NCBI GenBank assembly: GCA_015064625.1 | Contig: SVRW01000001.1 | Location: forward strand, 132,884 to 196,883 | Direction: 5' to 3' | Length of the DNA: 64,000 nt | DNA from: Oscillospiraceae bacterium | GTDB lineage: Bacteria > Bacillota > Clostridia > Oscillospirales > CAG-382 | Part shown: positions 36,560-61,803 of the stretch, piece by piece | How positions within the stretch are numbered: the first letter of the stretch is position 1 | Layout of the letters: each line of letters starts with the position of its first letter | Position numbers and translations under genes: made by a program | Notes under the pieces: generated by a model | The model's database searches: none | What the model was told of the DNA's origin: nothing | What the model saw: the letters and a program-made list of their open reading frames with translations, nothing else

Positions 36560-36636
36560 TGGCCTGCCCGACAGGATTCGAACCTGCGACCTTGAGAGTC
36601 GGAGTCTCATGCGCTATCCAGCTGTGCCACGGGCAG
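36560..36636 (-). tRNA. tRNA-Arg (anticodon CCG), CCA encoded
   Basis: The minus strand reads CTGCCCG-TG-GCAC-AGCTGGATA-GCGC-A-TGAGA-CTCCGAC-TCTCA-AGGTC-GCAGG-TTCGAAT-CCTGT-CGGGCAG-G-CCA. This folds as a cloverleaf with a 7-bp acceptor stem, a TTCGAAT T-loop and the anticodon loop CT-CCG-AC. Confidence 0.9.
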
Positions 36637-36642
36637 AACTAT

Positions 36643-37077
36643 TTATTTGCGTTCGTCTCCATCTGTTTTTTTCATAGCGTTCTTTATTCTGTACTGCAAA
36701 AAGCATTTCAAACATTGAAATGATGTCAATAACGTGAAAATAATAAATAATACAACTGTATAAAAGCAGAGTAATCCATTTATCAATCCAGCAAAATAGA
36801 GTACAATTTCAAGAACAAGAGATATAGCTACCGAAGGTAAATAATAAAATACTATGTCTTCCACAATATATTTTGAAAGCTTTTTATCTCTATCCGTAAA
36901 TTTTATAAAATAAGAATTGATATAAAAAGGAATCAAATAGACTATTGCCATCATCAGAATGAACAACAAGTCATAATTCGGAAAAAGGGAAACAAGCAGA
37001 TAAAACAAAACGATTTGAACCAAGGAATATATCATCTTAAATCTTGAACCAAAAGCTTTTTCTTTTTTTTCTGACAT
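36643..37077 (-). CDS. hypothetical polytopic membrane protein
   Basis: The ORF is 144 aa with four hydrophobic segments. I recognise no family. Confidence 0.45.
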   Translation of the reverse strand: MSEKKEKAFGSRFKMIYSLVQIVLFYLLVSLFPNYDLLFILMMAIVYLIPFYINSYFIKFTDRDKKLSKYIVEDIVFYYLPSVAISLVLEIVLYFAGLINGLLCFYTVVLFIIFTLLTSFQCLKCFLQYRIKNAMKKTDGDERK

Positions 37078-37111: not shown

Positions 37112-38773
37112 TCAGTTATGAGCTTCGCTCTGCTTTCTTATAGTATCTCTCTTGATTTTACCACTTGTTGTTTTTGGAAGCTGTTCCACGAATTCAACAA
37201 TTCGAGGATACTTATAAGGAGCAGTTGCCTGTTTTACGTGATTCTGAATTTCTTTCTTCAACTCATCAGAAGGTGTATACCCTTTTGCAAGAACTATTGT
37301 TGCCTTTATAACCTGTCCTCTTACAGGATCGGGAGCACCAGTTACAGCACATTCAAGAACAGAAGGATGAGTCATCAAAGCACTTTCAACCTCAAAAGGC
37401 CCTATTCTGTAACCAGAACTCTTGATAACGTCATCAGAACGTCCTTCAAACCAATAATAGCCGTCGTTATCACGTCTTGCTGTATCCCCCGTATCGTACC
37501 AATCGTTATAAAATGATTTTTTGTTTGCTTCTTCATCGTCAAGATATCCTTTGAAAAGTCCTGTAGGATAGAGCTTGGAAAGATTTTTTATAACTATATG
37601 TCCAACTATACCGTCTTCGCAACTCGTTCCGTCGGGATTGACTATATCAACGTCAAAAACAGGTGATGGTTTACCCGTAGAACCTGGTTTAATTTCGATG
37701 CCTGGATAGTTCGCAAGAATAACGGGGGTTTCCGTCTGTCCGAATCCCTCTGTAAGAGACAGTCCTGTAAGCTCCTTGAATTTGTTGAAAACTTCAGGAT
37801 TAAGAGGTTCGCCCGCTATAGAACATTGCTTTATGGACTTGAAGCTATCTGGATAATTTTGCAAATCCTCTTTGATAAGGAATCTGTAAATCGTAGGAGG
37901 AGCACAAAAAGTTGTAAGTTGAAGTTCAGCCAAAAGGTTCAGCGTATTGGCAGCATTGAATTTTTCGTTGTCGTAAGCAACTATAACTGCACCGCAAATC
38001 CATTGTCCGTATATTTTTCCCCAGGCAAACTTAGCCCATCCCGAATCTGACATGGTAAGATGAAGTTTTCCATCCTCAACTCTTTGCCAATATTTAGCGG
38101 TAAGAATATGACCCACAGGATAAGTATAATCGTGAACGATCATTTTAGGGAATCCCGTTGTACCTGATGAAAAATATATAAGCATCTCATCAGAGTTTTT
38201 ATTAGGTATTCTTTCAAATTTATCGGAATATGTGTAAGCTTCTTTTCTGAAATCGATGAAGCCTTCGGGGACTTTTTCGCCTACTATAGCAACATGCTCA
38301 AGCTCGTTACATTCGGGAACTGATTCCTTTATACTTTCTGTCAATTCCGCATCATCAACGGATATTATCATCTTAACGTGAGCTTTATTGCAACGATAAA
38401 CAATATCTTTTTTAGTCAACTGAAACGTCGCTGGGATAGCAACAATGCCTGCTTTATGTAATGCAAGGAAACAAAGCCATGCCTCAGGTCTTTGCTTGCA
38501 CATAAACATTACTCTGTCACCCTTTTTAAGTCCCTTATCCATTAAAAAGTTAGCAACCTGGTTGGAAAGGCGAGTCAAATCCTTGAAAGTATATTTTTTT
38601 CTGTTTCCAAAATCATCACACCAAACAAGAGCAAGCTTGTTTTCATCCTGTTCGCCCCATGCATCTGCAACGTCATACGCAAAATTGAATCCTTCGGGAA
38701 CAGTTACTTTATAATTTGATTTGAAATCTTCATATGACTCAAATTCTGTTTTTTCTAAAAATTTTTCTAACAT
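37112..38773 (-). CDS. AMP-forming acyl-CoA synthetase (ACSM/acetyl-CoA-synthetase-like, ANL superfamily)
   Basis: The ANL motifs are YFSSGTTGFPKM, GEPLNPEV, EGFGQTE, YDTGDTARRDNDGYYWFEGRSDDVIKSSGYRIGPFEVE and PKTTSGKIKR. Confidence 0.85.
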   Translation of the reverse strand: MLEKFLEKTEFESYEDFKSNYKVTVPEGFNFAYDVADAWGEQDENKLALVWCDDFGNRKKYTFKDLTRLSNQVANFLMDKGLKKGDRVMFMCKQRPEAWLCFLALHKAGIVAIPATFQLTKKDIVYRCNKAHVKMIISVDDAELTESIKESVPECNELEHVAIVGEKVPEGFIDFRKEAYTYSDKFERIPNKNSDEMLIYFSSGTTGFPKMIVHDYTYPVGHILTAKYWQRVEDGKLHLTMSDSGWAKFAWGKIYGQWICGAVIVAYDNEKFNAANTLNLLAELQLTTFCAPPTIYRFLIKEDLQNYPDSFKSIKQCSIAGEPLNPEVFNKFKELTGLSLTEGFGQTETPVILANYPGIEIKPGSTGKPSPVFDVDIVNPDGTSCEDGIVGHIVIKNLSKLYPTGLFKGYLDDEEANKKSFYNDWYDTGDTARRDNDGYYWFEGRSDDVIKSSGYRIGPFEVESALMTHPSVLECAVTGAPDPVRGQVIKATIVLAKGYTPSDELKKEIQNHVKQATAPYKYPRIVEFVEQLPKTTSGKIKRDTIRKQSEAHN

Positions 38774-38807
38774 TTTAAAATACCTCGCCTTTTATACTAT
38801 CCTATAT

Positions 38808-38836
38808 ATTATACACATATAAATCAAAAAAGTCAA
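38808..38836 (-). promoter_or_regulatory. sigma-A promoter of the acyl-CoA synthetase gene (copy 1 of a duplicated promoter module)
   Basis: On the minus strand this reads TTGACT (38836-38831), a 17-nt spacer, then TATAAT (38813-38808). It ends about 35 nt upstream of the ATG at 38773. Confidence 0.65.
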
Positions 38837-38867
38837 TACTTTTGCGGTCAAAATGTATTTTATAAGC

Positions 38868-38913
38868 AAAAAAAGTGAATTCCCAAAGCAAATTAAACAC
38901 TTTGGAAATTCAC
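38868..38913 (-). terminator. intrinsic terminator closing the ORFan island
   Basis: The hairpin GTGAATTCCCAAAG-(11 nt)-CTTTGGAAATTCAC has a 14-bp stem with one mismatch. On the minus strand it is followed by TTTTTTT (38874-38868). Confidence 0.75.
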
Positions 38914-38963
38914 GTATATAAATTTATAAATAACAGAAAAAATAACCGTTATAGCGGTAAATA

Positions 38964-39137
38964 TGAAAAGAATTGCCGTTAAAGTGTTCAAAAAATGTTC
39001 GTCCACTGCAGCTTTTTTAAGTGTTTTATAAAGTTTTAGGACTTTGAAATTGAATTTTAGAAAATTTGACATTGGACGGAGCAGAAAACCAGCTTAAAAT
39101 CTCACTTTTTCAGTGGGGTCATTCCGTCCCCTGTCAG
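38964..39137. repeat. B-type repeat, copy 1 (174 bp)
   Basis: The repeat begins TGAAAAGAATTGCCG and ends CTTAAAATCTCACTTTTTCAGTGGGGTCATTCCGTCCCCTGTCAG. Its paralogue at 41078..41251 has identical length, conserved ends and a diverged middle. It contains the stop codon of ORF 39134..40027. Confidence 0.8.
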
Positions 39138-40027
39138 ATGTTTGCACCCCATGAATTCAAATGGAGATCACAGCCAAAATATCCGCATAGATTCATTGGA
39201 GCAAAAACCAACTCATCAAAATAATTTTTGATGGTTGCTTTTCTTTTTTCCTGACACCGATAAAGGGTTTGAACTTCTTTAAAAAGACGTTTTTGATTGT
39301 AAGTCTCACAACACTCTAACTTCTTTTTAATAATTAAATTTACTCTCTCCGACTCATGTTGTTTGCAAAAAGCTTCAATTAGAATCGCCCACTCTCCATA
39401 TGATAATGACCATTCTTCATTCAAGCGTTCTTCTATTTCGATAATGCTTGAATACTTTTCGCATAAATAATAAAATATCACTCTATCTAATAAGTCCATT
39501 CGAGAAATTTGTTCATTGTATTGATTAGCGTTTAACCCTAAAATCAAACTCTTTTTGTCATACATCGCCATAGAAACGAAAAAAGGAAATATCATTTCGT
39601 TAGAAAGAGATTTGATATTTCTAAAAAGATAAAAGGCATTTTTATATTTTTTTTGCATAAACAACGAAATTGCACGATCGTAAAGAATATAGTCATTCGA
39701 AAGCAGTGAATAACAGGAGGAATAAAACTCATACGATTCATTATACTTTCGTTCATTAAAAAACACCTCACCCAAATTCATAAAAACAATTGCATTTTTT
39801 TGAAAAATTGATGCCTTTAATAAGTATCTCTTACCTAATGATTCCGCACACATTTCTTTTCCGCTTTTTGTTACGATTCCGTGTTGATATAAGAAAAGAC
39901 CTAAATTATTATAAGTTTGAAAGCATGGATTGGTGTTTTTATTGAGATAAAATAATTCTTGAGCAGTTTCAAATTCACCATTCAATAGCGCGCTCATTGC
40001 ACGCTTGTTTAATATTTCAGAATTCAA
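39134..40027 (-). CDS. hypothetical protein with TPR-like helical repeats
   Basis: The ORF is 297 aa. It starts at a TTG preceded by AAGGTAAACCA. Repeated amphipathic helix pairs (e.g. AIVFMNLGEVFFNERKYNESYEFYSSCY) suggest TPR-like repeats. I recognise no family. Confidence 0.55.
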   Translation of the reverse strand: MNSEILNKRAMSALLNGEFETAQELFYLNKNTNPCFQTYNNLGLFLYQHGIVTKSGKEMCAESLGKRYLLKASIFQKNAIVFMNLGEVFFNERKYNESYEFYSSCYSLLSNDYILYDRAISLFMQKKYKNAFYLFRNIKSLSNEMIFPFFVSMAMYDKKSLILGLNANQYNEQISRMDLLDRVIFYYLCEKYSSIIEIEERLNEEWSLSYGEWAILIEAFCKQHESERVNLIIKKKLECCETYNQKRLFKEVQTLYRCQEKRKATIKNYFDELVFAPMNLCGYFGCDLHLNSWGANI

Positions 40028-40114
40028 TGGTTTACCTTGATATTTTATTTTAAAAATTTAATATATTTCGGAATATTCAAAATATAGATATTTCATTAAA
40101 TGACAGGGCATAAA

Positions 40115-40291
40115 TGACAGAGGACGGTTCTGTGTCCGAAACTGAATTGTCCGAAAGTGTATTTATAAACGGCTTAAACTCGCGTTTATAGCAATTTAGA
40201 ACATGTTTTCAAACAACAGTTCGTCCACTGAATTTGCTATTCTTTTGTGAATTTTATGAGTTGAAATCTGACAGAGAACCGTCCCCTGTCA
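40115..40291. mobile_element. A-type element, copy 1: 177 bp with 22-bp terminal inverted repeats (MITE-like or invertible-switch-like)
   Basis: The left IR is TGACAGAGGACGGTTCTGTGTC (40115-40136). The right IR is GACAGAGAACCGTCCCCTGTCA (40270-40291). They are complementary at 20/22 positions. This copy differs at 9/177 positions from the copy at 40880..41056. It contains TTGAAA-N16-TGcTATAAA on the minus strand (40212-40185). Confidence 0.75.
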
Positions 40292-40366
40292 GATGGAGAT
40301 GACAGAGAACCGTCCCCTGTCAGATGGAGAGAACCGTCCCCTGTCAGATGGAGTCCCCTGTCAGAT
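40269..40366. repeat. nested, progressively 5'-truncated tandem repeats of the right-IR motif
   Basis: The array reads TGACAGAGAACCGTCCCCTGTCAGATGGAG (40269-40298), a, the same 30-mer (40300-40329), AGAACCGTCCCCTGTCAGATGGAG (40330-40353), then TCCCCTGTCAGAT (40354-40366). The TCCCCTGTCAGAT cores start at 40282, 40313, 40337 and 40354, giving spacings of 31, 24 and 17 nt. Confidence 0.9.
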
Positions 40367-40406
40367 TTGATAGGAGCACATATTCCTATAGCAGACCGGT
40401 GATTAC

Positions 40407-40802
40407 TCATCTTCCAAGGTTTAAATATCTTGCAATTTTAAAAACACTTTTGTAAAGAAAAATATCAAACGTGGGACCACTCGAGGAGAATTTGTGTCCG
40501 TTGTCGCCAATTAAATCGGCGTAATAATATCTTTCTGTAGTAGAGCGCTTTATTTCAAAACTATAACCATTGTTTTCGATGTAGTTGAGTAAATCTATTT
40601 CCGTTGCCAACCTGCTTCCTTTTGCAGAAACTTTTTGGTCTAATTCAGTAAATTTGCCATATTCAGGGTCATCTATTCCACCAATTATATAATTTTTTCC
40701 ATTGTAAAAATACACGCACCCAGTGTAACAGAGATGTTCATCTTCACCGAAGTTAAACCCGGCTTTTCGTAATTTTTCCATTGTGAATATACTTAAATAC
40801 AT
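40407..40802 (-). CDS. hypothetical protein (ORFan, soluble)
   Basis: The ORF is 131 aa. Its ATG is preceded by GAGGAA at 8-nt spacing. I recognise no motif. Confidence 0.55.
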   Translation of the reverse strand: MYLSIFTMEKLRKAGFNFGEDEHLCYTGCVYFYNGKNYIIGGIDDPEYGKFTELDQKVSAKGSRLATEIDLLNYIENNGYSFEIKRSTTERYYYADLIGDNGHKFSSSGPTFDIFLYKSVFKIARYLNLGR

Positions 40803-40879
40803 ACGTGCTTTTCCTCAAATTTTTAATATCAATCTAACGGGTCCTTTATGTTTTCCTGTGATAAAGTTTCCGGGTCAAA

Positions 40880-41056
40880 TGACAGGGGACGGTTCTGTGT
40901 CTGAAACTGAATTGTCCGAAAGTGTATTTATAAACAGCTCAAACTCGCTTTTAAAGCAATTTAGAACATATTTTCAAACAACAGTTCGTCCCCTGAATTT
41001 GCTATTCTTTTGTTAATTTTATGAGTTGAAATCTGACAGAGAACCGTCCCCTGTCA
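40880..41056. mobile_element. A-type element, copy 2: 177 bp with 22-bp terminal inverted repeats
   Basis: The left IR is TGACAGGGGACGGTTCTGTGTC (40880-40901). The right IR is GACAGAGAACCGTCCCCTGTCA (41035-41056). They are complementary at 21/22 positions. The internal motif TTGAAA-N16-TGcTTTAAA lies on the minus strand (40977-40950). Confidence 0.75.
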
Positions 41057-41077
41057 GAGCGTTCATGAGTTGAAATC

Positions 41078-41251
41078 TGAAAAGAATTGCCGCAATAGTC
41101 GGGGAAAAAATGTCCCCAACTATCGCGTTTTCATCTATTTTCCGTCTTTTTGAAAATGTGAAATCAATTTTGGCAAAATCCAACGCACAGAGAGACAAAT
41201 TATCGGCTTAAAACCTCACTTTTTCAGCGGTTTCGGACCGTCCCCTGTCAG
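41078..41251. repeat. B-type repeat, copy 2 (174 bp)
   Basis: The repeat begins TGAAAAGAATTGCCG and ends CTTAAAACCTCACTTTTTCAGCGGTTTCGGACCGTCCCCTGTCAG. It lies 11 nt downstream of the stop of ORF 41263..41538. Confidence 0.8.
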
Positions 41252-41262
41252 CTGGGTCACTG

Positions 41263-41538
41263 TCAAAACGGTAAAAGATGATTTCCTGATATAATAGTAC
41301 ATGTTAACCAAATAAAGCTAAAAATGTACGCGCCATCAATCCAATTTAGAGAAGCACAAGCCACAGTAAACAGTAGAGAAACGGTTCCTATGATAGCGTT
41401 TGTTATATACATTTTCTTGTTTTTACGCAATCTTTCTGTTAAATTATATTTTGGATCTAAATACTTGCGAAATAATATTAAGAAGCCTATGCATGCAGCT
41501 CCAAAAATGTATTCGCACTTTAAGAAATCGTTGAGCAT
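41263..41538 (-). CDS. hypothetical small membrane protein (3 TM)
   Basis: The ORF is 91 aa with three hydrophobic helices and a weak RBS (AGGT, 8 nt). I recognise no family. Confidence 0.45.
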   Translation of the reverse strand: MLNDFLKCEYIFGAACIGFLILFRKYLDPKYNLTERLRKNKKMYITNAIIGTVSLLFTVACASLNWIDGAYIFSFIWLTCTIISGNHLLPF

Positions 41539-41578
41539 GTAAAATTACCTGTTTTCCTCAAAGAACAATATATAATCA

Positions 41579-41607
41579 GGGAGACATGGGACGGTTCTAT
41601 GTCTCCC
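41579..41607. repeat. stand-alone hairpin carrying the island's conserved 11-nt loop
   Basis: The hairpin is GGGAGACAT-GGGACGGTTCT-ATGTCTCCC, with a perfect 9-bp stem. Its loop is the reverse complement of the AGAACCGTCCC loop in the A-element right IRs. Confidence 0.85.
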
Positions 41608-41653
41608 TTCCCTGCATGAAGATACTCCTTTAACCACCTTGAATATGAATAAA

Positions 41654-42088
41654 TTATTTTTCAACTTCCTTTAAACTTGAAACAAAAAGTTCACCGTAAT
41701 TGTTCTTTGAGAAGATTAACTCATAAGGAATTTCATTTATTTCAAATTCAAAATATATTTCTTCAAGCTCCAAAACAAAACTTTCTATTGTTTCGGGAGC
41801 TTTTGCCCAAAATGAATCGTACGTCCTTTCCAAAAATCCTTTGTCACTGTTTGGCTTGTAAGAGATTGTATCGTAAAATTCAACAAAAAAATTATTACCA
41901 TGCTTATTGATTATTTCAGCGTTGGATTTTATATATTCTTCAGCTTTTATCTGATAAACTTCAAGATATTCTCTCTCTTTTGTCATTATTTCTGAACTTC
42001 TGTTCACTGTGAATATAACGAACGCACTCATTATTCCAAACGCCAAAACGCATGCAACTACAAAAATGATAACTTTCTTATTTTTCAT
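41654..42088 (-). CDS. hypothetical membrane-anchored protein
   Basis: The ORF is 144 aa. It has an N-terminal signal-anchor (VIIFVVACVLAFGIMSAFVIF) and a good RBS (AGGTAGTG). I recognise no family. Confidence 0.55.
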   Translation of the reverse strand: MKNKKVIIFVVACVLAFGIMSAFVIFTVNRSSEIMTKEREYLEVYQIKAEEYIKSNAEIINKHGNNFFVEFYDTISYKPNSDKGFLERTYDSFWAKAPETIESFVLELEEIYFEFEINEIPYELIFSKNNYGELFVSSLKEVEK

Positions 42089-42248
42089 AATATCACTACC
42101 TTTCTTAATTAGGGAGATAAAGAAGACGGTCGTCTTTTTCCTTAATCACTGACTTTTTAAATCACTGTTTTAAACATGATTATTTAAGCTATTAATATCC
42201 TTGTAATACGATTCAGTCATCTTATTGATACACCTTTGTTACAAATAC

Positions 42249-42277
42249 ATTATACTCGAACAAATCAAAAAAGTCAA
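42249..42277 (-). promoter_or_regulatory. sigma-A promoter at the head of the ORFan island (copy 2 of the duplicated promoter module)
   Basis: On the minus strand this reads TTGACT (42277-42272), a 17-nt spacer, then TATAAT (42254-42249). It shares a 23-nt identical block, AAATCAAAAAAGTCAATACTTTG on the plus strand, with 38821-38843. Confidence 0.65.
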
Positions 42278-42308
42278 TACTTTGGCAGTTAAATACACTT
42301 TACATAAA

Positions 42309-42347
42309 ATCCCCGACATGAATTTACTAAAAAATCACATCGGGGAT
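42309..42347 (-). terminator. intrinsic terminator after the NuoE/NuoF/GltD-fusion operon
   Basis: On the minus strand the sequence is ATCCCCGATGTG-(15 nt)-CATGTCGGGGAT, a 12-bp stem including two G.U pairs. TTTTATG follows. Confidence 0.65.
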
Positions 42348-42361
42348 AATTTACAAAATGA

Positions 42362-44389
42362 TTATTCGTTTATAAACTTCAAAGCACCTGTAGGACAAGC
42401 GTCTACGCACTTATGGCAGTCCTTACAATAAGTGATAACACCTTGGTCTTTGAATTCGGGTTTAATAACAGTTTTGAAGCCTCTGCCAACAAGACCGAGT
42501 ATTCCTTTTCCTACGACCTCGTCACAAACTCTTACGCAAAGCCCGCAGAGAATACATTTACCCTGATTACGTTCAATGCTTACCAGCTTTCTTTCGGTTT
42601 CATGCAAATGCTTTTCACCGCTGAATTTGGAAGGATTAAGTTTATATCTGTTTGCATGTCTAATAAGACGGCAGTTCTTGTATTCATGGCATCCGCATTC
42701 GAGACAGCGTTTAGCTTCTTCAATTGCAGTTTCATCTGAGAATCCGAGATTTACCTCTTTGAAATCGTTCTTGCGTTCCTCAGCAGGACGGCAAGGCATA
42801 ACTGCACGAGGCAATACTTCACGGTCAGCAAACATTTCCTTTGTTACTGTTCTTTCAGAAACGTAAGGAGCAACGTAAGGAACAACGTCTCCATTCAGGA
42901 AAGAATCAACAACGTCAGCAGCTTTATTTGCTTCGCCAATTGCGGCAATAGCTATAGATGCACCTTTATTTGTTGCATCGCCAACTGCGAACACCTTAGG
43001 ATTGTTAGTTCTGAAGGTATACTCATCGGCAACGATAATTCCCTTTTTGTTAAGTTCAAGCCCTTCAAAGCCTGCAACGTTAACCTTCTGACCTATTGCG
43101 GAAATAACCGTATCAACGTCGAGAATTTCGAATTTTCCTTCAACGGGAACAGGAGATCTTCTTCCGCTCGCATCAGGCTCGCCAAGCTCCATAACCTGAA
43201 GCTTAACCTGTTTTGCTTTACCGTTTTCACCAATAATTTCAGCAGGATTAGTAAGGAATTTAAAGGTAACGCCTTCTTCCTTTGCCTCTGCAATTTCTAT
43301 TTTTTCAGCAGGCATTTCTTTTTCCGTACGTCTGTAAATAACGTATACGTTTTCAGCGCCGAGTCTTACAGCAGTACGGCAAGCGTCCATAGCTGTATTA
43401 CCGCCGCCAACAACGGCAACGTTCTTACCAATATTGGTTTCTTCACCAAGGCTTACTTTTCTGAGGAAATCAATACCGCCCCAAACGCCTTCAAGATCTT
43501 CGCCTACGCATCCAACGCCCATGCTTTTCCAAGCACCGATAGCAACGATAACAGCGTCAAACTTTTGGCAGAATTCTTCGAATGAAGCATCCTTGCCGAT
43601 TTTGAAATTGTTTTTCATTTCAACGCCAATAGACGCGATTTCTTCAATTTCTTTATCAAGAATTGCTTTTGGAAGTCTGTATTCGGGAATACCGTATCTG
43701 AGCATACCGCCCATTTTAGGCATTGCATCAAAAACAGTTACAGAATGTCCCTTTGATGCAAGGTAATAAGCAGATGTCAAACCAGCAGGACCACCGCCGA
43801 TAATACCAACAGTTTTGCCAGTTGAAGGAGCTTTGGTTGCAACAACGTGTTTTCCTTCATTATGTACCTTATCTGCGGCATAATATTTGAGGAATGCTAT
43901 AGAAATAGGCTCTTCAACGTTTGTTCTTCTACAAGCTTTCTCACAAGGATGAGGACAAACACGTCCAATTGAAGCAGGAAGAGGAAGCTTTTCCTTAATT
44001 ATTTCAACAGCACCAAATGCATCGCCTTCTGCAATTTTCTTAACGTACCCCTGACAATCAGTTCCCGCAGGACAGTTAAGAGAGCAAGGTCCTTTACAAT
44101 CACCATCGTGATCACTCATAAGAAGCTCAAGAGCAGTTTTTCTTGCCCTTATAACTCTTTCAGATTCCGTATTTATAATCTGTCCATCCATAGCAACTGT
44201 TGAACAAGCACGCATAAGCTTGGGCATTTTTTCAGCTTCAACCAAGCAGATTCCGCAAGCACCGTATTTTTTCACGCTGCTATGATGACATAAAGTTGGT
44301 ATTTCTATTCCGTTTGCACTTGCTATTTCAAGAATCGTTTTTCCTTCTTCTGCAACGCAAACTTTTCCGTTGATCGTAACAGTTATCAT
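42362..44389 (-). CDS. GltD-like NAD(P)H flavoprotein fused to NuoG-type [2Fe-2S]/[4Fe-4S] domains (BfuA-like subunit, no H-cluster)
   Basis: The N-terminal [2Fe-2S] ferredoxin is TINGKVC...TLCHH...CGICLVE...C. The GltD block is PASIGRVCPHPCEKACRR..VGIIGGGPAGLTSAYYLA..GMLRYGIPEYRLPK..GGGNTAMD. The C-terminal Cys clusters are CILCGLCVRVC and CKDCHKCVDACP. Confidence 0.75.
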   Translation of the reverse strand: MITVTINGKVCVAEEGKTILEIASANGIEIPTLCHHSSVKKYGACGICLVEAEKMPKLMRACSTVAMDGQIINTESERVIRARKTALELLMSDHDGDCKGPCSLNCPAGTDCQGYVKKIAEGDAFGAVEIIKEKLPLPASIGRVCPHPCEKACRRTNVEEPISIAFLKYYAADKVHNEGKHVVATKAPSTGKTVGIIGGGPAGLTSAYYLASKGHSVTVFDAMPKMGGMLRYGIPEYRLPKAILDKEIEEIASIGVEMKNNFKIGKDASFEEFCQKFDAVIVAIGAWKSMGVGCVGEDLEGVWGGIDFLRKVSLGEETNIGKNVAVVGGGNTAMDACRTAVRLGAENVYVIYRRTEKEMPAEKIEIAEAKEEGVTFKFLTNPAEIIGENGKAKQVKLQVMELGEPDASGRRSPVPVEGKFEILDVDTVISAIGQKVNVAGFEGLELNKKGIIVADEYTFRTNNPKVFAVGDATNKGASIAIAAIGEANKAADVVDSFLNGDVVPYVAPYVSERTVTKEMFADREVLPRAVMPCRPAEERKNDFKEVNLGFSDETAIEEAKRCLECGCHEYKNCRLIRHANRYKLNPSKFSGEKHLHETERKLVSIERNQGKCILCGLCVRVCDEVVGKGILGLVGRGFKTVIKPEFKDQGVITYCKDCHKCVDACPTGALKFINE

Positions 44390-46693: not shown

Positions 46694-47055
46694 GTGAAGA
46701 ATGACTGCGTCTGTAAGCCGGGTTCTGTCTTAAGCGGTCATCTATCTTGGACTTACGTTACCGCAAGCCTCTTTGCCACCCAGGAGCTTGCCGAGCAAGC
46801 AATAACGCTCCCATACGGTGTTGCTCCGGATAGGGTTTACATGGCCGCACAGTCTCCTGTGCGCCGGTAGGCTCTTACCCTGCCTTTCCATCCTTACCCC
46901 GTTAAAACGAGGCGGTTTATTTCTGTTGCACTAGCCCTAAAGTCGCCTTCGGCGGACGTTATCCGTTATCCTGCTCTATGGAGCCCGGACTTTCCTCACT
47001 CCGTGACCTTTCGGTATGACGGGGCGCAACCGCTCGGCGCAGTCGGCTACTTCAC
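46694..47055 (-). ncRNA. rnpB: RNase P RNA (bacterial, apparently class A)
   Basis: This is a GC-rich block in AT-rich surroundings. The minus strand contains GAGGAAAGTCCGGGCTCCATAGAGCAGG (P4 5' strand region, plus-strand 46981-46997) and ACAGAACCCGGCTTA (46714-46728). The P1 pairing is GTGAAGTAGCCGACTGCG ... CGCAGTCATTCTTCAC. Confidence 0.9.
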
Positions 47056-61727: not shown

Positions 61728-61803
61728 TGGTGGACGATAAGGAACTCGAATCCCTGACCACTCGCACGTCAAGCGAGTGCTCTACCAGCTGAGCTAATCG
61801 TCC
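61728..61803 (-). tRNA. tRNA-Val (anticodon GAC), CCA encoded
   Basis: The minus strand reads GGACGAT-TA-GCTC-AGCTGGTA-GAGC-A-CTCGC-TTGACGT-GCGAG-TGGTC-AGGGA-TTCGAGT-TCCTT-ATCGTCC-A-CCA. It is 76 nt and folds as a canonical cloverleaf. Confidence 0.9.

Follow-up and report, generated by a model that had tools for sequence, protein, structure and literature searches.

Mosaic arrays of repeats that lie between conserved genes and carry alternative sets of small genes are familiar from the bacterial interspersed mosaic elements (BIMEs) of E. coli and from the neisserial intergenic mosaic elements and minimal mobile elements. In integron arrays such as the VCR super-integron of Vibrio, small open reading frames (ORFs) follow each other on the same strand behind a promoter at the head of the array, each with an imperfect palindrome after it that is recognised as folded single-stranded DNA. 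Repetitive extragenic palindromic (REP) sequences and RAYTs, the tyrosine transposases associated with REPs, have, to our knowledge, been investigated in Proteobacteria almost exclusively, and the repeats there are viewed as small selfish or regulatory elements; classical REPs are species-specific. The present work deals with a locus that resembles each of these systems in part. It lies in a 64-kb stretch of contig SVRW01000001.1 of an Oscillospiraceae bacterium, the whole of which was analysed and is called the window below, between an operon encoding NuoE, NuoF and a GltD-fusion protein and a gene for an acyl-CoA synthetase. The region lies at a synteny breakpoint and is probably a mosaic island, variable between strains, whose gene modules undergo turnover through recombination at REP-type hairpins. 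The host would be a rumen or gut member of the Oscillospiraceae (Ruminococcaceae), and the island may be described as an array of small orphan gene modules split by hairpins of the REP type or the terminal inverted repeat (TIR) type.

The locus shares with BIMEs and the neisserial elements a mosaic repeat array and strain-alternative small genes between conserved genes, but the repeat family and the enzyme are different and the junctions fall in hairpin cores, not in flanking genes. With integron arrays it shares same-strand small ORFs of unknown function accompanied by palindromes, with a promoter at the head; unlike them, it has no IntI gene, attI site or attC consensus, its repeats are of a Y1 family and a terminator module stands inside the array. 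Over 10 kb to the left and to the right of the island, the Pfam-annotated gene calls include no recombinase, and the 182-nt repeat element, which ends in CTGACAGGGGACGGTTCTCTGTCAG, contains no GTTRRRY, whereas attC sites have RYYYAAC/GTTRRRY boxes and measure 57-141 nt.

In Proteobacteria, REPs and their inverted doublets (REPINs) are short extragenic hairpins, found singly, in clusters or as such doublets, and inverted copies surround a single Y1/HUH gene, the RAYT or TnpA-REP (Nunvar 2010; Bertels & Rainey 2011; PMC5581495). The same forms occur in the island, and inverted copies around a single Y1 gene, with a match to NF047646, are seen in other genomes. Canonical REPs carry, in passages of a later study (PMC6006769), a GTAG or GTGG tetranucleotide 0-2 nt 5' of the hairpin; no conserved tag of this kind is present here, where variable bases lie 5' of the stem, in covariation with those on its 3' side. 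Two further differences are that the 11-nt loop and the stem are almost invariant across phyla and that the repeats in this window are confined to one island, not dispersed.

The likeness to the TIRYT or TIRtron elements (PMC3733652; Quentin et al. 2018, PMC6006769) lies in what passages of those papers report: a RAYT-like Y1 protein with a C-terminal helix-turn-helix (HTH) between inverted repeats, and moderately abundant repeat families that form dimers and clusters and have a G-rich motif near GGGGWSAS. That motif is shared by the TIRs of TIRYTs in a passage of Di Nocera et al. (2013, PMC3733652), and the hairpin core GGGGACGG agrees with it at 7/8 positions, with G for A at position 7. Strain-to-strain replacement of repeat-bounded modules, as found here, is a point of difference, and passages of PMC3733652 and PMC6006769 do not describe it.

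An ORFan island at this position had been proposed in a sequence-only reading of the window, and the observation was confirmed. All genes at the locus lie on the minus strand, and its features are the following.

42362-44389, minus strand: GltD-fusion gene, constant left flank
42309-42347, minus strand: terminator hairpin of the GltD operon, RNA fold -21 kcal/mol, z -5.8; kept in sister strains
42245-42293, minus strand: promoter module P1, -35 TTGACT at 42277-42272, -10 TATAAT at 42254-42249
41654-42088, minus strand: ORF1, 144 aa, constant first island gene in three strains
41579-41607, minus strand: REP-type hairpin h1, GGGAGACAT-AGAACCGTCCC-ATGTCTCCC, DNA fold z -3.6
41263-41538, minus strand: ORF2, 91 aa, small and hydrophobic
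41078-41254, minus strand: D element, with REP half-site 41235-41254, variable middle and terminator hairpin 41091-41127
40877-41058, minus strand: copy C of the 182-nt element, a pair of REP hairpin units in inverted orientation, 127 nt apart, REPIN- or mini-TIRtron-like
40407-40802, minus strand: ORF3, 131 aa, of a small uncharacterised protein family
40294-40366, minus strand: tandem nested truncated REP copies that run on into copy B
40112-40293, minus strand: copy B of the 182-nt element
39134-40027, minus strand: ORF4, 297 aa, weak tetratricopeptide repeat (TPR) match
38866-39140, minus strand: A element, with REP half-site 39121-39140, D-homologous body and terminator 38875-38913; constant right flank
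38804-38852, minus strand: promoter module P2, -35 at 38836-38831, -10 at 38813-38808
37112-38773, minus strand: gene of acyl-CoA/acetyl-CoA synthetase type with AMP-binding domains, constant right flank

The four same-strand ORFs that had been described between the flanks are thus present (144, 91, 131 and 297 aa, all minus strand). The earlier statement that they have no recognisable family stands for Pfam, PHROG and PADLOC, except for the weak TPR match in the 297-aa ORF.

Junctions between strains

The sister assembly GCA_045596755.1 is 98.6% and 98.0% identical to the window in the two flanks. Its homology ends at 41583, within the hairpin that follows ORF1, and is found again from 39135, a position in the half-site at which the A element starts; the left junction of the strain variation was placed at 41583-41588. 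The sister strain keeps ORF1, and ORFs of 291, 158 and 180 aa stand in place of ORF2-4. On its left side ORF1 is followed by the 291-aa ORF, two hairpin copies and the 182-nt element. Its synthetase side reads 182-nt element, 158-aa ORF, hairpin cluster, a 47-nt fragment identical to P1, the 180-aa ORF (with a probable signal peptide), A element, P2 and synthetase. In a third strain, a third sequence follows the h1 hairpin core. The locus therefore has alternative conspecific genes between the same flanks, as do variable loci of the minimal-mobile-element type.

At the left junction the three alleles share GGGAGACATAGAACCGTCCC (one reads CCGTTCC), after which they read ATGTCTCCC, CTGTCA and CTGTCTC. 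The sister allele retains the left arm and loop of h1 with a right arm that is non-complementary. Since a perfect hairpin is found at this junction only in the window allele, the hairpins of the other alleles are chimeric. At the right junction, differing 5' arms are joined to one common GGGACGGAATGACCCC. The junction alleles share only hairpin cores, and the exchanges hence fell within the conserved core of 8-13 nt. The alignments show that gene modules were swapped, lost or gained between strains via joins inside this core. The density of single-nucleotide differences in the coding flanks shows no sharp rise near the junctions, the non-coding A element excepted (17 differences/300 nt). Import via homologous recombination in the flanking genes was considered and dropped, the divergence showing no sharp rise toward the junctions.

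It was also observed that short-read metagenome contigs of this species (L128, L129, L130, L131, L132, L041 and L135) end inside the hairpin or 182-nt repeats. Since they do so repeatedly, the locus is fragmented systematically in metagenome-assembled genomes (MAGs), and its variation is probably under-reported.

Conspecific contigs, defined by exactly the same synthetase or GltD protein, were obtained from several JGI/ENA samples. Every one that reaches into the locus carries island genes over the part that it covers. The search for an empty site, recommended by the sequence-only reading, found none in any of these contigs, nor in the relatives examined. On the synthetase side, the nearest relative (91% protein identity) has an acyltransferase gene upstream of P2 and the synthetase, and its nucleotide homology to the window stops at 38845, the upstream edge of P2. 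In the nearest relative on the GltD side (90%), GltD is followed by a convergent RCC1-repeat gene, and neither P1 nor hairpins were found in 16 kb. As the GltD and synthetase flanks are non-adjacent in these relatives, the island marks a synteny breakpoint or rearrangement junction, not an insertion into an existing junction of terminator, promoter and gene.

The hairpin family in the island and in other genomes

The repeat unit, TGACAG-GGGACGGTTCT-yTGTCA, consists of a 6-9-bp stem and a conserved 11-nt loop. Related repeats do occupy every gap of the island, as had been reported, and the unit takes the form of a single hairpin (h1, which stands alone 3' of ORF1), a tandem run, half-sites fused to terminator modules and a 182-nt inverted doublet. 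Matches to GAACCGTCCCCTGTCA with up to 3 mismatches number nine in the 64-kb window, and 9/9 lie within the island, at 39121-41597 (expected 0.11). Single units fold in DNA with z of -3.6 to -4.2. In the D and A elements, half-sites are joined to terminator-bearing modules of about 170 nt that are homologous to each other. Copies B and C of the 182-nt element are 95% identical and have 25-nt TIRs; the element forms one long hairpin (z -5.5) and is an inverted doublet in the sense of a REPIN or TIR dimer. Three sister-assembly contigs carry copies with 96-97% identity; of these, L041 otherwise shares nothing with the window. On a contig of that assembly a copy follows an unrelated 94-aa hydrophobic ORF.

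The stop codons of ORF2 and ORF4 are provided by the TGA of the TGACAG arm of the next repeat. The three terminators (42309-42347, 41091-41127 and 38875-38913) fold far better than shuffled sequences, with z of -5.8 to -7.5; the strongest is the hairpin of the D element (-26 kcal/mol, z -7.5), and the terminator that had been predicted at the end of the island was confirmed at 38875-38913. The hairpins probably also act in RNA as 3'-end or terminator structures.

Tandem Repeats Finder gave exact periods of 31 nt and 24 nt over 40269-40353. Nested hairpin copies precede the 5' end of the 182-nt element at three loci (40269-40366 in the window, 11347-11400 of L131 and 3255-3300 of L041) and are cut off at various positions, either behind GGGGAC or behind TTCTCT, as if copying had been aborted, or slippage had occurred, time and again. 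A separate observation is that read-through into the hairpins gives upstream ORFs a tail of the type ...TGDGS... and creates spurious ORFs made of repeats (L035 5324-6439, L107 95-646, L131 10554-11429, and 40237-40410 and 41019-41198 of the window, both minus strand). Gene callers will presumably extend or invent proteins at these repeats.

No Rfam family was assigned to the repeats at gathering or E<=1 thresholds, at which only chance miRNA-like matches appeared. A CRISPR identity was dropped owing to irregular spacing, and the likeness to a dif/Xer-like 11-6-11 site, which was visual only, was superseded by the association with Y1 proteins.

The exact 17-mer of the core was scanned for across 185,579 species genomes, and was found at more than 119 genome loci; the counts that follow hold among the matches listed. 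They are overwhelmingly from Clostridia/Bacillota, Syntrophomonadaceae, Dethiobacteria and Atribacterota, with few others. Several copies per genome are frequent, as are pairs in inverted orientation with 20-40 nt between them. In several genomes the copies are spread over many contigs; in this window 9/9 copies lie in one 2.5-kb stretch. The complement that closes the stem is present in 113/152 matches. Across 53 copies the outer stem covaries, with 46 double-sided changes and a score that 0/500 shuffles reach; the unit is accordingly a hairpin-forming imperfect palindrome of conserved structure, as REP-type repeats are. No copy was found in viral contigs. In the searchable literature the sequence of the hairpin did not turn up, and only unrelated primer matches were obtained. 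The identical 17-mer also occurs in MAGs labelled Prevotella, Bacteroidaceae, Desulfovibrio, Spirochaetota and Candidatus Methanoperedens (L012, L014, L022, L029, L058 and L080), most copies with the stem-closing complement; this could reflect cross-phylum spread or bin contamination.

Several of the 17-mer matches stand directly upstream of ORFs that start with MPRQAR, and a phmmer screen of the fetched loci gave ten Y1-type ORFs. In five loci (L017, L055, L063, L107 and L122) copies of the motif in inverted orientation stand on both sides of the Y1 gene. The proteins match Pfam PF01797, one of them with a C-terminal HTH_23 match, and NCBIfam NF047646, "REP-associated tyrosine transposase", for which 1/4 scored above the curated cut-off and the rest just below. 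The hairpin-bracketed Y1 genes fit the TIRYT/TIRtron class as outlined in passages of PMC3733652 and the TnpA-REP subclass 2.1 with C-terminal HTH in those of PMC6006769.

We infer that the hairpins serve as portable recombination sites, for which two routes may be envisaged. A Y1 transposase acting in trans could cleave and join the hairpins; alternatively, microhomology could operate together with template switching at stalled hairpins. For homologous recombination of the RecA type, a core of 8-13 nt is short, and for this reason Y1 cleavage and joining or template switching would be favoured. The nested truncated tandem copies point to the template-switching route.

Island proteins and alternative explanations

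The hydrophobic N-terminal stretch of ORF1 may, by eye, be a transmembrane anchor, and ORF2 may likewise be placed at the membrane. Hydrophobic N-termini are found in several island modules, and in ORF1 and the 291- and 180-aa ORFs of the sister strain they suggest an envelope location; at a guess, the island proteins could be accessory envelope or interaction proteins. Between strains, ORF1 is 99.3-99.5% identical, and its differences are all nonsynonymous (2/2 and 3/3, in L131 and L135), while synonymous and nonsynonymous changes in the flanking core genes stand at 35:5 and 14:2. Such a pattern, based on small numbers, could indicate relaxed or diversifying selection. ORF2 together with a D-like element has a homologue of 93.5% nucleotide identity in another genome, adjoining a gene of BspA/leucine-rich-repeat type; the two ORFs differ by 11 synonymous and 7 nonsynonymous codons.

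ORF3 belongs to a family of 22 representative clusters at E<=1e-3 among 1.84 billion proteins. Its domain of about 125 aa is modelled by AlphaFold2 (AF2) as an alpha/beta fold with a mean confidence (pLDDT) of 92.9, and occurs in 12 copies in a 3663-aa protein (P0138) and in two copies in proteins of about 287 aa (P0136/P0139). No fold match in PDB at E<=0.001, no PDB sequence match and no Pfam match were obtained for it. A metagenome scan with ORF3 returned one 1-kb contig, which is without repeats.

Several observations weigh against module turnover by recombination at the hairpins. The ORFs sit between inverted doublets (<- ORF ->), not inside them as REPtron-like passengers would, and no Y1 transposase gene lies within the 64-kb window. 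Around the ORF3 homologues of other species there are no hairpins. The contigs of the sister strain end in repeats, and the order of its island is known only in two parts. The alleles seen number only 2-3, and junctions at repeats would also be expected from differential deletion of a larger ancestral array. ORF4 has no homologues beyond its own 90% cluster in a word-indexed search of 5.8 billion proteins; for this reason, and since the differences in ORF1 are only nonsynonymous, some island ORFs may not be functional genes.

In a neutral explanation, the locus is a dispensable rearrangement junction on which REPIN-like elements have piled up, with ORFs that are mostly decaying or spurious and with strain differences due to deletions or slippage between repeats; neither dedicated machinery nor a function would be involved. 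This is held to be unlikely, although it may fit ORF4 especially. Besides ORF4 and ORF1, it can draw on the resemblance of the nested truncated tandem hairpins to slippage, on the strong terminator between ORF2 and ORF3, which has no clear promoter downstream of it, and on the position of ORF3 between direct 182-nt repeats. However, ORF3 is a member of a conserved family with a confident fold, and synonymous changes exceed nonsynonymous ones between ORF2 and its homologue. The sister strain has other long ORFs (291, 158 and 180 aa) and not just fewer genes. Moreover, the alleles share hairpin cores only, and deletion alone would need a much larger ancestral array, which was not observed.

It has also been considered that the hairpins are sites of integron-like gene capture by a domesticated Y1/HUH transposase of the RAYT/TIRYT class. 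The enzyme would cut single-stranded hairpins in the core (...GACAG/GGGACGG...) and rejoin them, and modules bounded by inverted hairpins would be exchanged among arrays and strains. Capture of this kind would account for the chimeric hairpins at both junctions and for the near-invariant 17-nt core across phyla; it is nevertheless judged improbable.

The sequence-only reading had offered a further explanation, in which a single cassette inserted below the synthetase promoter and duplicated it, the island being gained or lost through the direct repeats P1 and P2. The TTGACT-N17-TATAAT modules at the two island ends were indeed found (P1 at 42277-42249, P2 at 38836-38808), and they rank first and second among the sigma-70-like matches of the 6.2 kb scanned. 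The 23-mer said to be identical in both modules is shared by them but differs at one position (22/23; 38821-38843 ends in T, 42262-42284 in G), and the 64 kb contain no third copy even when 3 mismatches are allowed (chance expectation 0.00). The similarity of P1 and P2, which are direct repeats, covers 49 nt at 84%. The 22-nt promoter core is also present in the JGI contigs L001 and L002; a metagenome scan for it gave 0 matches, in a collection from which this organism is evidently absent.

Because the relative with the 91%-identical synthetase retains GCAAAAGTATTGACTTTT ahead of the synthetase gene, P2 is the ancestral synthetase promoter. The spacer TTTTGATTT is common to P1 and this species' P2 and is not that of the relative's promoter, and P1 is on this account a recent copy of P2, or has been homogenised with it. 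The 90% relative has no P1 downstream of GltD. In the sister strain, a third copy of P1, partial but identical at 47/47 nt, lies within the island and abuts a repeat. The comparison shows that a sigma-70-type promoter module was copied within the island, from P2 to P1, with a P1 fragment again in the sister strain. Given this internal copy, the promoter is one of the shuffled modules, not the attachment site of the island. After P1 there is also a 16-codon ORF (MTESYYKDINSLNNHV, 42172-42222, minus strand), kept in three strains with one substitution in L135. The idea that it is a remnant of the synthetase N-terminus was dropped; it had been noted by eye only, and the alignment was not convincing.

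Insertion of a single cassette thus agrees with the direct repeats (49 nt, with the 22/23 core unique in 64 kb), with the ancestral standing of P2 and with the apparent recency of P1, and this part of the proposal survives. Yet no conspecific contig that reaches the locus has an empty site, and the flanks are apart in the two nearest relatives. The promoter copies do not bound the variable part, as had been supposed; strain variation is bounded by hairpins (41583-41588 and 39135). The third partial P1 copy inside the sister island is a further difficulty, as is the lack of a recombinase within 10 kb on either side. A comparison of GC content and codon usage with the flanks had been suggested as well, and gave a lower GC for the island (0.333 vs 0.36 in the window). 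GC at third codon positions (GC3) is equal in island ORFs (0.28-0.30) and flanking core genes (0.29-0.33), from which it follows that composition shows no sign of a foreign origin. Distant blastn searches with the island against phage and plasmid collections gave no match. A site-specific genomic island would combine such features; here direct repeats are present, with no integrase, no empty site and native GC3. The probability of the single-cassette explanation is therefore low.

Finally, an integron-like array of promoterless cassettes captured by a dedicated site-specific recombinase, or a set of orphan immunity genes of a polymorphic toxin system, is very improbable: small ORFs do stand in one orientation below one promoter, imperfect-palindrome repeats do start at or in ORF stop codons, and the ORF3 family does include two-copy fusions and the 12-copy protein of 3663 aa, multi-copy domain fusions being common among immunity proteins, but the adjoining 10 kb on each side contain no integrase, other recombinase or toxin gene, the repeats are without the attC R/L box consensus (GTTRRRY) and form a Y1-transposase-associated family instead, and the island ORFs gave no PADLOC match or PHROG family at E<1e-3 and no Pfam immunity family.

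Neighbouring genes and significance

Directly downstream of the synthetase gene lies a gene for a 144-aa multi-pass membrane protein without Pfam family (36643-37077, minus strand), which may be a functional partner of the synthetase. An unannotated ORF of 135-148 aa, matched by size only, is also found 3' of the synthetase in relatives down to 73-75% synthetase identity. Two tRNA genes were located (36563-36636 and 61731-61803, both minus strand), one of them between a MatE gene and the gene for the 144-aa membrane protein. At 46698-47045 on the minus strand, about 550 nt upstream of the NuoF ORF, there is an RNase P RNA of the bacterial class A (276 bits).

REP/RAYT and TIRYT systems were already known; what is new is the near-invariant cross-phylum hairpin, its concentration at one locus and the module replacement at hairpin cores. 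The hairpin, linked to RAYT-like Y1 proteins, is nearly invariant across Clostridia, Syntrophomonadaceae and Atribacterota, and the copies seen in this organism are concentrated at a single locus, which exchanges whole gene modules between 98%-identical strains at hairpin cores. If only microhomology at the hairpins is involved, the locus would be a clean natural example of repeats as portable recombination sites, and this would also explain the breaks of metagenome assemblies here. If the exchange is driven by an enzyme, the turnover of gene cassettes in gut and rumen Firmicutes would have a new route, and a class of "domesticated" transposases would gain a function.

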